DNA of 61,146 nucleotides, filler included, from Malassezia furfur (Eukaryota), in NCBI GenBank assembly GCA_052055015.1. It is 2 parts of 2 records of this genome, joined end to end, with 100 filler letters (N's around TTAATTAATTAA, not from the genome) between each part and the next. Parts side by side here need not be neighbours in the genome. Positions count along the whole stretch, not along the records: positions 1 to 30,539 come from JBQJIT010000100.1; 1 more part is not named here. One strand, written 5' to 3'. The notes under the pieces were generated by a model. That model saw only the letters and a program-made list of their open reading frames with translations, searched no databases and was not told where the DNA came from. Every line of letters begins with the position of its first letter. The stretch's first letter is position 1. The position numbers were made by a program, and so were the translations under genes. Below are positions 7,094 through 15,233 of the stretch, piece after piece.

Positions 7094-9238
<2,145 letters not shown>

Positions 9239-12216: not shown

Positions 12217-13104
12217 CTAAATGTACACCTGGATACAGGAATGGCGGTGACCTGGCTCAGGATGACACCGCTGCTTGCAATGGGAAACGGGGCACGAGAA
12301 AGCGTGCCCTTTGTTCTCGCTCGCATCGTTGGACTCGCCGGCATTAGGCGAGGCTCCGCCTAATCGCGCAACACATCGTCCATCAATCACATGCCCGCAG
12401 GGCAGTGCCCAAATGCGCGTGTCGCCCGTGCCACCGAGAACGAGAGCACTCTTGCATCCTGCACAGATCGGCGTGGTATCTGGAAGTGGCGCGACCGCAT
12501 CTTCGTTGCCTGCCAAGAGTTCCTCCAGGTCGATCGGGGGCTCGACGATGCTCTGCGTAAAGCCAGGTTGGGGCGGTAGAGGGTGGGTCCAGCGGGGATT
12601 GAATCCGCCCTGAAGCGCTGCCCGGCTTAGATCTTTTCCGGCAGTAGGGCGCACATCTGCCCCTTCTGCAGTTGCGTAGGGTCGTAAGAGAGTTTGGGGC
12701 GTCGTCGCATTACGTGACCGTGCAACATAGCGCGAGGCAAGCATGCCAATCCGCTCCAATAGATCATTCCTGGACTGAGACGAGATGCGCGCGCGGTGGC
12801 GTCGGGTATAAGGTCCAGGAGGAATCCCCTCATGGATTCGCTGCGAGGGACGTGCATGACGCACTTCGACGATGCTCGGTAGCGTGGGCGAAGAGGATCG
12901 TCGCTGTGAATTTAAAGAGAATCCCACAACGGAGACCTCATCATCAATGTCAGATTCGTCGAAGAACGCCGCTTGCTGCATGCGCTGAGGTGATGCTGGG
13001 GTAGGACGTGCTCCAGCCGATGCTGAGAGCTCATGAGGCTCCCGGCGCTCGGGGAACGGCGGTGAATCCTCAGTGAGGTCTATTACAGTCCTTGAGTCCG
13101 GCAT
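12217..13104 (-). CDS. RING-like protein with N-terminal SUMO-interacting motif (Slx5/Rfp-like STUbL subunit candidate)
   Basis: VIDLTEDS SIM, a second EVSVVG hydrophobic-acidic patch, and C-terminal CAGC…LPCGHVIDGRC…CPVSHC. Confidence 0.6.
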   Translation of the reverse strand: MPDSRTVIDLTEDSPPFPERREPHELSASAGARPTPASPQRMQQAAFFDESDIDDEVSVVGFSLNSQRRSSSPTLPSIVEVRHARPSQRIHEGIPPGPYTRRHRARISSQSRNDLLERIGMLASRYVARSRNATTPQTLLRPYATAEGADVRPTAGKDLSRAALQGGFNPRWTHPLPPQPGFTQSIVEPPIDLEELLAGNEDAVAPLPDTTPICAGCKSALVLGGTGDTRIWALPCGHVIDGRCVARLGGASPNAGESNDASENKGHAFSCPVSHCKQRCHPEPGHRHSCIQVYI

Positions 13105-13338
13105 AGAAATCGCGGACGAAGAACGCTCCGCATTGAGGCAGACGCCTCCAGAAAACAACGTCGTTGGCCCGGTTCTACGAGACCTGGGCTGGCGGCAACG
13201 CGCCCTTCTTCGGCCGACAACGGCCAAGAAAACAAATTCGCGTTAAAAATGCCCGCGCGCAAACTGCCGTTTTCTTCCCTTGCAACGATCTCGACGAAGT
13301 AAGTGTCTATTTCCCACCCCCCACCCCCCTCTCCATTC

Positions 13339-13452
13339 AAAGGATGATCTTTCTTTCCTTTCCCCGGCCTATGCGACTATGCCGAGACTATAAGGACGCC
13401 TGTTTGCTACAGGCATCTTTCTTGGTGCTTGCCAGCACCGTTTTGTCTGATC
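13339..13452 (+). ncRNA. snR190: Box C/D snoRNA snR190-like, inside intron 13299-13503
   Basis: Box C-like AGGATGA (13341-13347) and box D CTGA (13447-13450). The 5' TTCTTTCC/CTTTCCCCG is complementary to LSU domain V CGGGGAAAGAA. TGTTTGCTA (13401-13409) and CATCTTTC (13414-13421) are complementary to LSU domain I UAGCGAACA…GAAAGAUG. It lies directly upstream of U14, as in the known fungal snR190-U14 cluster. Confidence 0.72.
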
Positions 13453-13575
13453 CCTCCCCCCTTCTCTCCCCTTGTTGCGAAAACAGACACTAACACGCGC
13501 CAGCTTTCACTTCAGATTGCCTGTAAAGCGTTGCCGCAGGCTCTGTCTCTGTGAGGTACGTTGTTGACCAGCCAC

Positions 13576-13839
13576 ATGCCCCTGTGATGAAACACTTGGT
13601 ATCCAGCCAAAATTCGCAGTTTCCACTCTAGGACCCACGCAACCTTGGTTGGGGCACTTGGCTCTCCTTCCGAGAGACTTACATGGTGCTGTCCATCTCT
13701 CTGAGAGGACCGGCATGAACCCTCCGCATTGCGGAGTGTCGGGCCAGTGGCAGCATCCAAGTCGTTTGGATCGGTTTGGATTGCAGCCGGCTCTGGTTCG
13801 ATGAGGGTCGCAGACCTTCCTTGGAAGTCTGAGGGGCAT
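13576..13839 (+). ncRNA. U14: U14 (snR128) box C/D snoRNA, expanded (~260 nt), inside intron 13556-13875
   Basis: Terminal stem ATGCCCC/GGGGCAT; box C GTGATGA 13584-13590; domain A TTCGCAGTTTCCAC 13613-13626 (anti-18S GAAACUGCGAA); domain B CCTTCCTTGGA (anti-18S UCCAAGGAAGG) immediately before box D CTGA 13829-13832. Confidence 0.93.
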
Positions 13840-13923
13840 TGGCAGTCATGTTTTGGAACGCATACTAACGATCAGAGTATTGTAGTGTAGTGTTATCAAC
13901 GTGGTAAGTTCAATCGGGTTGGT

Positions 13924-14256
13924 CTGCCGCTTGTACATGATGAGCATGTTACATGCAACCTACAAAGCCTAGGAAGAGCCGTCGTCAGTGCTTTGGGCCT
14001 CTGCGAGGAATTCCCTGGACAGTCTCATTGCCTGCTTTCTCCATGGATTCCGACCGTGCGTGCACGGTCGTTGAGTCGGTGGATCGAGAGGCCAGCGGGT
14101 GCTCTGTACGTCCACGTGCGTGCTTTGTTGCCATCCGCTGGGAGGGCGGTGTCCATTGCCCAGGTCGAGTCCTCCGCATGTCCAACGTTGCAAGGCCGAA
14201 AAATTGGTTCCTGACTCACGTGGCTTTCGTCACGGGACATGCAACGAGCGAGCAGG
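13924..14256 (+). ncRNA. Candidate structured intronic ncRNA (probable snoRNA, family unassigned) in putative intron 13904-14293
   Basis: External stem CTGCCGCTTGT/ACGAGCGAGCAG; ATGATGA at 13937; CTGA at 14211; ACA+3 nt before the 3' stem; several strong hairpins; 12-nt complement to LSU rRNA (TAGGAAGAGCCG, 13970-13981). Confidence 0.5.
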
Positions 14257-14293
14257 CGGCACCCTTTTTTCTTTGGAACAACACTGACCGCAG

Positions 14294-14797
14294 ATGTTCG
14301 TTCGTTCGGCGCCTCGTGGCGTTGGGATGGCGCGTGTTGGGCTTGGGGCGCGCGGCGTATACCCGGTGTGCCCCGTGCGGTCCCAAAGCACGGTCGCGCA
14401 AAATGGCACACAGCCAAGTGACACTGCCACTACGCACTATCGCGTCACCTTGCGGCGCTCGGCCATCGGCTTGTCAAAACAGACTGGACGCGTGTTGGAA
14501 TCTCTTGGGCTTCACAAGCGCCTGCAGAGTGTGTACCAGCCCCAAAACCCCGCCACAGCCGGTGCGATCCTCGCAGTCAAGGAGCTCGTGCACGTCGAAA
14601 ATGTGCGTGCATTGTCCCCAGAGGCGGCCGAGTCCCTTGACGCCTCGGCCACGGTTTGGGTTAATGCGAAAGGCGAGGTCGTGGATGCTGGCCGTGTCGC
14701 CTTCAAGGCACCCAAGGGTTTCCGCGTTGTTGGCAATCTGATCAACGAAGAGCGTGATGCGGTTGTGAAGCGATCACTCTCCGAAAAGGAAATATAG
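14294..14797 (+). CDS. MRPL33: Mitochondrial ribosomal protein uL30m (MrpL33)
   Basis: HYRVTLRRSAIGL…LESLGLHKR.Q.VY…AGAILAVKELVHVE is the uL30 signature. N-terminus resembles an Arg-rich presequence. Confidence 0.9.
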   Translation: MFVRSAPRGVGMARVGLGARGVYPVCPVRSQSTVAQNGTQPSDTATTHYRVTLRRSAIGLSKQTGRVLESLGLHKRLQSVYQPQNPATAGAILAVKELVHVENVRALSPEAAESLDASATVWVNAKGEVVDAGRVAFKAPKGFRVVGNLINEERDAVVKRSLSEKEI

Positions 14798-15233
14798 CGA
14801 CACGCCCTATGCAATATGCTGGTATGGCTTGCCGGCGATTGTAGATATCGATGATACCATCTTTTTCATGACTCCTCTCGAGCCATTACTGCCGTCATTA
14901 GGGCGCAGCGCCCAGGGGACCTGTGTGCTGTATGGGAATTACGCCCGATGGTCTAATCTTTTTGTGATTCGCGCGATTATCGCACAAACCAGTCATTCGT
15001 GCTTTCTCGCGCCACATCTGGGGTTCCACGCAGTGTAAGTATCTGGTTCGTGCGAATCACCAAACCGCCACCCTCCAGCACACCAGACTCCGTAAGTGGG
15101 GATCCCTTCCTACCAATCGTTCTATTGGCGTGTCCGATCTCAAATCCGCCGTGTCCCCTGATACATTATATATTGAGACTTGCTGTGTACACGGACCAGC
15201 CGATCCCTTCTCCCTCTCTGCTATCTCCTCGCT

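Follow-up and report, generated by a model that had tools for sequence, protein, structure and literature searches.

Introns and coding exon of the uL30m locus

The sequence analysed here, referred to below as the window, is a stretch of 61,146 nucleotides (nt) from Malassezia furfur; all coordinates are window positions. It includes an open reading frame (ORF) for the mitochondrial ribosomal protein uL30m, the homologue of MRPL33, which is preceded on the same strand by three GT-AG introns, each enclosing one candidate small nucleolar RNA (snoRNA): a snR190-like RNA, U14 and a third, long RNA of the box C/D type (Table 1). On direct reading, all three introns, together with their branch sites, were found where an earlier note on this DNA had placed them, as were the two small exons that separate them; the AG of the last acceptor indeed lies immediately before the uL30m ATG at 14294. 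The distance from the branch-site A to the acceptor is 10, 7 and 6 nt in introns 1, 2 and 3, respectively, and each of the three RNAs (3/3 window introns) is framed by a donor, a branch site and an acceptor of the strand that encodes it.

Table 1. Coordinates of the predicted features of the snoRNA/uL30m locus
Feature	Position	Strand	Remarks
Promoter region and short exon 1	13105..13298	+	Presumptive assignment; exon 1 would end at 13298
Intron 1, 205 nt	13299..13503	+	GTAAGT, branch site CACTAAC, CAG
snR190-like box C/D RNA	13342..13454	+	In intron 1; D box CTGA 13447-13450, terminal GGA/TCC pairing
Exon 2, 52 nt	13504..13555	+	ATG-free
Intron 2, 320 nt	13556..13875	+	GTACGT, branch site TACTAAC, CAG
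U14 snoRNA, ~258 nt	13579..13836	+	In intron 2; terminal stem CCCC 13579-13582 / GGGG 13833-13836
Exon 3, 28 nt	13876..13903	+	ATG-free
Intron 3, 390 nt	13904..14293	+	GTAAGT, branch site CACTGAC, CAG abutting ATG 14294
Third RNA, long box C/D type	13930..14222	+	In intron 3; ends approximate; C box ATGATGA 13937-13943, D box CTGA 14211-14214
uL30m (MRPL33 homologue) coding sequence, last exon, 167 aa	14294..14797	+	Pfam PF00327 Ribosomal_L30
Divergent gene upstream of the leader	12217..13104	-	295-aa ORF

The coding exon matches the Pfam Ribosomal_L30 profile with an E-value of 8.8e-14 and 51.5 bits, well over the family cut-off of 23. Its product is 92-96% identical to M. furfur-type proteins. 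Altogether 85 relatives were found; several of them are named uL30m and more distant ones are annotated as "related to MRPL33". The N-terminus, variable and arginine-rich ahead of the conserved core, would fit a mitochondrial presequence, as expected for such a protein.

The earlier note also held that the spliced leader past 13251 is free of ATG triplets. This proved correct, the last ATG ahead of the uL30m start in the predicted spliced sequence being that at 13249. This triplet lies inside a TATA-like element, TTAAAAAT (13243-13250), at a distance of 50 nt from the first donor, and transcription may begin only downstream of it. TATA-like elements were noticed by eye some 40-50 nt before the first 5′ splice site in two relatives as well (L001 and L002, see below). 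The ATG at 13249 was considered as the true start of a protein with coding introns and rejected, because splicing leaves its frame 130 nt out of register and the resulting 38-codon upstream ORF ends in exon 3. An N-terminal extension of uL30m into the leader was likewise discarded, as an in-frame stop occurs in the spliced leader and another in unspliced intron 3. Since a stop precedes ATG 14294 in frame in the spliced leader, and since the upstream ORF is out of frame, the three introns are best described as leader introns and not as coding ones. A 262-aa ORF on the plus strand (13953-14741), overlapping intron 3 and uL30m in another frame, matched no Pfam family and is probably a chance frame in DNA of 64% G+C.

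The frequency with which such signals arise by chance was estimated from a strict composite of branch site and acceptor (ACTRAC-N2-12-CAG), counted on both strands of the window against a first-order Markov background. Six composites were found on the plus strand and two on the minus strand, for a Markov mean of 3.2 per strand. Half of the six are the acceptor regions of introns 1-3; they fall inside 800 nt, each of them 3′ of a GTA[AC]GT donor. With about 0.04 composites expected per 800 nt, simple arithmetic from the Markov figures puts the probability of three or more at roughly 1e-5. Thus, the clustering of the three composites is far above chance. A fourth plus-strand composite, at 8851, closes a 364-nt intron (8499-8862, plus strand; GTACGT ... 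CACTAAC ... CAG) of a DEAD-box helicase gene, and this intron splits the Pfam Helicase_C domain between profile positions 79 and 82. The leader introns thus have an internal control in a proven coding intron that uses the signals found in them. An Rfam search of the region around it (8490-8870) gave no match.

The RNAs within the introns

No part of the window matches an Rfam family at the gathering threshold, and the identities proposed for the three RNAs rest on motifs, synteny and conservation. The RNA in intron 1 aligns to the full snR190 model (RF01249, clan CL00044; positions 1-198) with 18.8 bits and an E-value of 0.67, the gathering score being 40. Its conserved core falls on the conserved stretch of the model. 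L002 has a canonical C box, that of the window being degenerate. In the window and in L001-L004, L009 and L010, where the motifs of the RNA recur at the same place, it lies directly upstream of U14 on the same strand.

U14 is recognised by its box C (GTGATGA, 13584-13590) and box D (CTGA, 13829-13832), which together with the terminal stem give it the organisation of a box C/D RNA. A 15-nt element (13612-13626) and an 18-nt 3′ element running into box D (13815-13832) both match the Rfam consensus; these are the elements known as domains A and B, which would be directed at 18S rRNA. The match to SNORD14 (RF00016, gathering score 64) is divided into a 5′ half of 23.7 bits and a 3′ half of 17.9 bits (model positions 51-111), because about 150 nt of extra sequence separate the two halves, making an RNA of ~258 nt against a model of 111 positions.

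The third RNA contains an invariant 15-nt element, TAGGAAGAGCCGTCG (13970-13984). Presumably, this element has its complement in large-subunit rRNA close to the peptidyl-transferase region, an assumption that agrees with the targets predicted for Afu-198, an RNA of Aspergillus fumigatus. The Rfam model of the latter (Afu_198, RF01500) aligns to the third RNA with 17.8 bits and an E-value of 0.33 for a gathering score of 40, the alignment being confined to the C box and the conserved element that follows it, in the 5′ part of the model. Afu-198 is a box C/D snoRNA and a predicted guide for Cm2856 and Um2859 of 26S rRNA (PMC2377427). It shares with the third RNA the C box and the adjoining conserved element; it differs in being 130 nt long and intergenic, whereas the third RNA would span ~285 nt between its boxes and lie in an intron. 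An RNAalifold consensus of the third RNA from four sequences comprises 82 pairs, 19 of them with a compensatory change.

Beyond the C and D boxes of the third RNA, the two extremities of intron 3 are complementary to each other (13918-13930 with 14245-14262 in the window, 2829-2842 with ~3150-3165 in L010), and in the consensus fold they make up the outer helix (columns 6-16 paired with 380-388). This helix may be an external stem that helps assembly of the small nucleolar ribonucleoprotein (snoRNP), or the mature RNA may be longer than the interval from box C to box D. A match to mir-4523 in intron 3 (24.2 bits for a gathering score of 96, E-value 0.2) was dismissed as a chance hit to a GC-rich hairpin, given the fungal nature of the locus and a score so far below the threshold.

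Conservation of the arrangement in relatives

Metagenome contigs were scanned with a uL30m protein alignment, which yielded 43 loci. U14 was searched for in those 32 loci whose upstream flank measures 1000 nt or more. In 7 of these 32, both U14 elements are present upstream of uL30m on the same strand. The seven loci reduce to four distinct sequences: L001; L002, with which L003 and L004 are identical over the region; L010, with L009 nearly the same; and L008. The U14 elements are identical throughout L001-L004, L009 and L010, and L008 has a single-base difference in the 3′ element. Upstream of uL30m, 8 loci carry the third RNA's invariant element. In L001, L002 and L010, three introns precede uL30m on the same strand, with one RNA each in the same order, and the genes on either side, the divergent one upstream and the one downstream, are syntenic with those of the window. 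Thus, the comparison of snR190-U14-MRPL33 synteny that had been proposed finds the layout again in three other Malassezia-type metagenome loci. These three and the window are referred to as the four Malassezia-type sequences; where four values are listed below, they stand in the order window, L001, L002, L010.

All nine introns of the three relatives (9/9) have a donor starting with GT, a CTRAC branch site and a YAG acceptor. The last acceptor lies 0, 2, 6 and 1 nt from the uL30m ATG. The predicted internal exons measure 11 and 45 nt in L001, 10 and 26 nt in L002, and 9 and 6 nt in L010, the shortest being those at L001 5172-5182, L002 5189-5198, and L010 2490-2498 and 2808-2813. Exons of 6-11 nt would, if used, be among the shortest expected to be spliced. 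Identity to the window across L001, L002 and L010 amounts to 81-82% for the snR190-like RNA, 71-80% for U14 and 54-59% for the third RNA, whereas exon 1, the internal exons and every intron flank reach only 26-51%. This pattern suggests selection on the RNAs and the splice signals only, the surrounding sequence being otherwise free to drift.

These data bear on the idea that the splice signals are not used at all, the snoRNAs being made from promoters of their own, or from a polycistronic precursor cut by RNase III, and uL30m being a separate gene. There are precedents for this in yeasts: S. cerevisiae makes its snR190-U14 pair through an unspliced precursor cleaved by RNase III, and maturation of S. 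pombe U14 hardly depends on splicing (PMC11971394). Signals kept at nine of nine intron positions in the midst of unalignable sequence argue against such a scheme for Malassezia, as do the use of the same signals by the coding intron at 8499-8862 and the clustering of the three composites far beyond chance. We therefore regard it as very improbable. Still less can be said for a fortuitous pattern of signals combined with spurious RNA matches. Such a view can appeal to the Rfam scores, all of which lie below gathering with E-values of 0.12-0.67. Against it stands the fact that contigs independent of one another carry, at matching positions, the exact U14 elements of 15 and 18 nt, the core of the snR190-like RNA and the element of the third RNA. 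In conjunction with the composite clustering and the pattern of conservation, the comparative data refute it as far as sequence can, and its probability is negligible.

More distant loci retain parts of the arrangement. On inspection by eye, a branch site followed by a YAG was found 14, 0 and 4 nt before the uL30m ATG in L005, L006 and L007, respectively, all of them short contigs. In L005, whose uL30m has a Ustilago-like N-terminus, and in L006, the third RNA lies within the intron that ends 14 or 0 nt before the ATG; the L007 contig starts with the branch site, which is followed by the TAG 4 nt before the ATG. In L008, with 41% identity, U14 is located ~280 nt before the ATG, a donor/acceptor pair (also read by eye) ends 12 nt before it, and no third RNA was found upstream of uL30m. 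The L008 contig (1-3990) opens with an unbroken helicase-like frame of 998 codons (nt 3-2996), followed by U14, the unspliced leader introns and a uL30m ORF with a long internal insertion; it ends in 17 A residues, 33 nt past the stop codon. These features make it resemble a complementary DNA (cDNA) and place U14 and uL30m on one molecule, which constitutes weak support for their co-transcription.

A separate line of evidence came from the distribution of upstream ATGs. The predicted spliced leaders of the four Malassezia-type sequences total 316 nt, exon 1 being counted with 30 nt in each and exon 2, exon 3 and the spacer in full. They contain no ATG, for 8.2 expected from the density in the introns (96 ATGs in 3708 nt; Poisson P 3e-4). 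Constraint of this kind is expected of the leader of a translated mRNA, and not of exons that belong to a non-coding host. Towards the end of intron 3, the ATG nearest to the start codon lies 55, 28, 22 and 9 nt before it. With ATGs in the intron tails, a clean leader therefore requires either that the intron be spliced out or that transcription start within 9-55 nt of the start codon, depending on the species.

The latter option corresponds to a model with two overlapping units, in which the spliced host would serve mainly for the snoRNAs and be a minor or unstable product, most uL30m mRNA arising from a promoter late in intron 3. In the window, the 55 nt that run up to the start codon at 14294 are free of ATG and could accommodate a very short independent leader. 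Internal starts are also conceivable by analogy, an extra promoter before U14 being suspected by the respective authors in N. crassa (PMC2780460) and in S. pombe (PMC11971394). In the relatives, the ATGs at 28, 22 and 9 nt leave almost no room for a clean independent leader. Furthermore, species share only 31-42% identity in the terminal part of intron 3, where no conserved element was seen, and exonic pieces devoid of ATG would be expected only if ribosomes scan them. On balance, two overlapping units appear unlikely.

A probable single transcription unit and its parallels in other fungi

The preceding results favour the view, already put forward in the earlier note, that the uL30m ORF belongs to the same spliced transcription unit as the snoRNA host exons. 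The conserved introns, the position of the last acceptor and the ATG-free leaders all point in this direction, and we put the probability of a single unit at about 0.8. We postulate that one RNA polymerase II unit starts in the ~190-nt gap next to the divergent upstream gene and extends across a short exon 1, the three introns with their two small exons, and the uL30m coding exon. Each intron would deliver one box C/D snoRNA, namely the snR190-type RNA, U14 and the long Afu-198-like RNA. Splicing would free three intron lariats, out of which the snoRNPs would be trimmed, and would at the same time fuse the uL30m start codon directly to a leader of about 100 nt devoid of ATG. The spliced host RNA would thus itself be the uL30m mRNA and presumably the main one. 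With intron 3 spliced at its conserved acceptor, the uL30m ORF would necessarily begin right after the leader.

Several points weigh against the single-unit model. Besides the internal starts suspected elsewhere and the Rfam scores of the three RNAs, all below gathering, 25 of the 32 loci searched for U14, all from more distant fungi, lack its motif; the arrangement is thus restricted to a lineage. The internal exons of 6, 9, 10 and 11 nt in the relatives are deduced from splice signals only. Splice sites of L005-L008 were read by eye. L008 is chimeric and retains its introns, and hence would attest at best to co-transcription and not to splicing. Finally, the four Malassezia-type sequences are related to one another, so that neither the upstream-ATG test nor the conservation counts are fully independent.

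The earlier note went further and proposed that production of nucleolar RNAs is coupled to that of a mitoribosomal protein. The comparative data support this in the sense of shared transcription and not as a selected regulatory link. The tie between snoRNAs of the cytosolic ribosome and a mitoribosomal protein is most simply viewed as a historical accident of where the cluster came to lie, because the hosts of these snoRNAs differ between fungal lineages. That the linkage itself was selected, Ustilaginomycotina having long kept one promoter for three nucleolar RNAs and a mitoribosomal protein, is unsupported and, in our estimate, quite unlikely. If it were so, RNAs for assembly of the cytosolic 40S and 60S subunits would be tied to mitoribosome output at the levels of transcription and splicing, the third RNA would be an unusually long, structured box C/D RNA aimed at large-subunit rRNA, and intron retention or use of the 6-11-nt micro-exons could switch between snoRNA production and uL30m translation. 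Should a shared promoter prove to matter for the balance between synthesis of cytosolic and of mitochondrial ribosomes, it would be of wider interest.

Placing one snoRNA in each intron of a host gene is standard in animals and common in fungi (PMC2780460). The closest parallel is the argininosuccinate synthase gene of Cryptococcus neoformans (CNAG_00930), which holds snR190 in intron 1 and U14 in intron 2; according to its authors, more distant Tremellomycetes link the same pair to different genes (bioRxiv 10.1101/2024.10.08.617225). As in Malassezia, the organism is a basidiomycete and the two RNAs occupy consecutive introns of a protein-coding pre-mRNA, with snR190 first. The Malassezia locus differs in its uL30m host, in having all three introns in the untranslated leader, in the third snoRNA and in its tiny internal exons (52 and 28 nt in the window, 6-45 nt in the relatives). 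Moreover, the Cryptococcus case is backed by RNA-seq, whereas the Malassezia layout is read from DNA.

Cluster V of Neurospora crassa carries CD16, the snR190 homologue, and CD37, which is U14, in a UHG-like host whose co-transcription was validated by reverse transcription-PCR (PMC2780460). It resembles the Malassezia locus in the order of the RNAs, in having one of them per intron and in its canonical splice signals. Its host, however, has short ORFs only and is regarded as non-coding, whereas the last exon in Malassezia is a conserved coding ORF that starts at the acceptor. In Schizosaccharomyces pombe, snR107, the snR190 orthologue, is likewise intronic and 5′ of U14 within one precursor (mamRNA-snR107-U14; PMC11971394). 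Unlike in Malassezia, the host is a long non-coding RNA with a regulatory role of its own, U14 is not intronic and there is no protein-coding exon. Saccharomyces cerevisiae has the same linkage and order of snR190 and U14, but no introns, its dedicated dicistronic precursor being cleaved by Rnt1 (PMC11971394).

In view of these systems, the remark of the earlier note that it knew of no description of this arrangement needs qualifying. A uL30m host was not found described, while an intronic snR190/U14 pair in a protein-coding gene is known from Cryptococcus. What is new is uL30m as the host, a leader that contains the entire cluster, the presence of a third RNA and the predicted micro-exons. 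The layout is a fresh example of a known mode of making snoRNAs and not a new principle. For Malassezia and Ustilago, the literature search, which did not extend to supplementary tables, turned up no description of U14 or of its host.

The published annotation of M. sympodialis, in the part of it that was accessible, is without snoRNAs (PMC5209728). Malassezia would thus gain U14, a snR190-type RNA and a third box C/D RNA, along with a gene model for making them. A survey of fungal snoRNAs concluded that Basidiomycota seem to lack U14 and snR190 (PMC5824354). The present data help to correct this view, suggesting that both RNAs are present in basidiomycetes and can be missed because they occur in expanded forms that score below family thresholds. 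In compact, intron-poor genomes such as this one, some of the few long introns may have been kept because they carry essential RNAs. As a practical matter for annotation, the uL30m gene model would need a three-intron leader.

On the other side of the presumptive promoter region, the start codon of the divergent 295-aa ORF lies 195 nt from the first 5′ splice site, an interval that bounds any shared promoter. No Pfam family matches this ORF at E<=1. Orthologues occupy the same divergent place in L001, in L002, L003 and L004, and in L010 and L009 (tblastn). Downstream of uL30m, two further GTAAGT hexamers are found on the plus strand at 15035 and 15092, between the uL30m stop codon and the next ORF (ATG 15234); neither is followed on its 3′ side by a composite of branch site and acceptor, and a TATATAT sequence occurs at ~15168. 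The DEAD-box intron at 8499-8862 is itself long for a compact genome. The DBP2 gene of S. cerevisiae has a long regulatory intron at a similar place.

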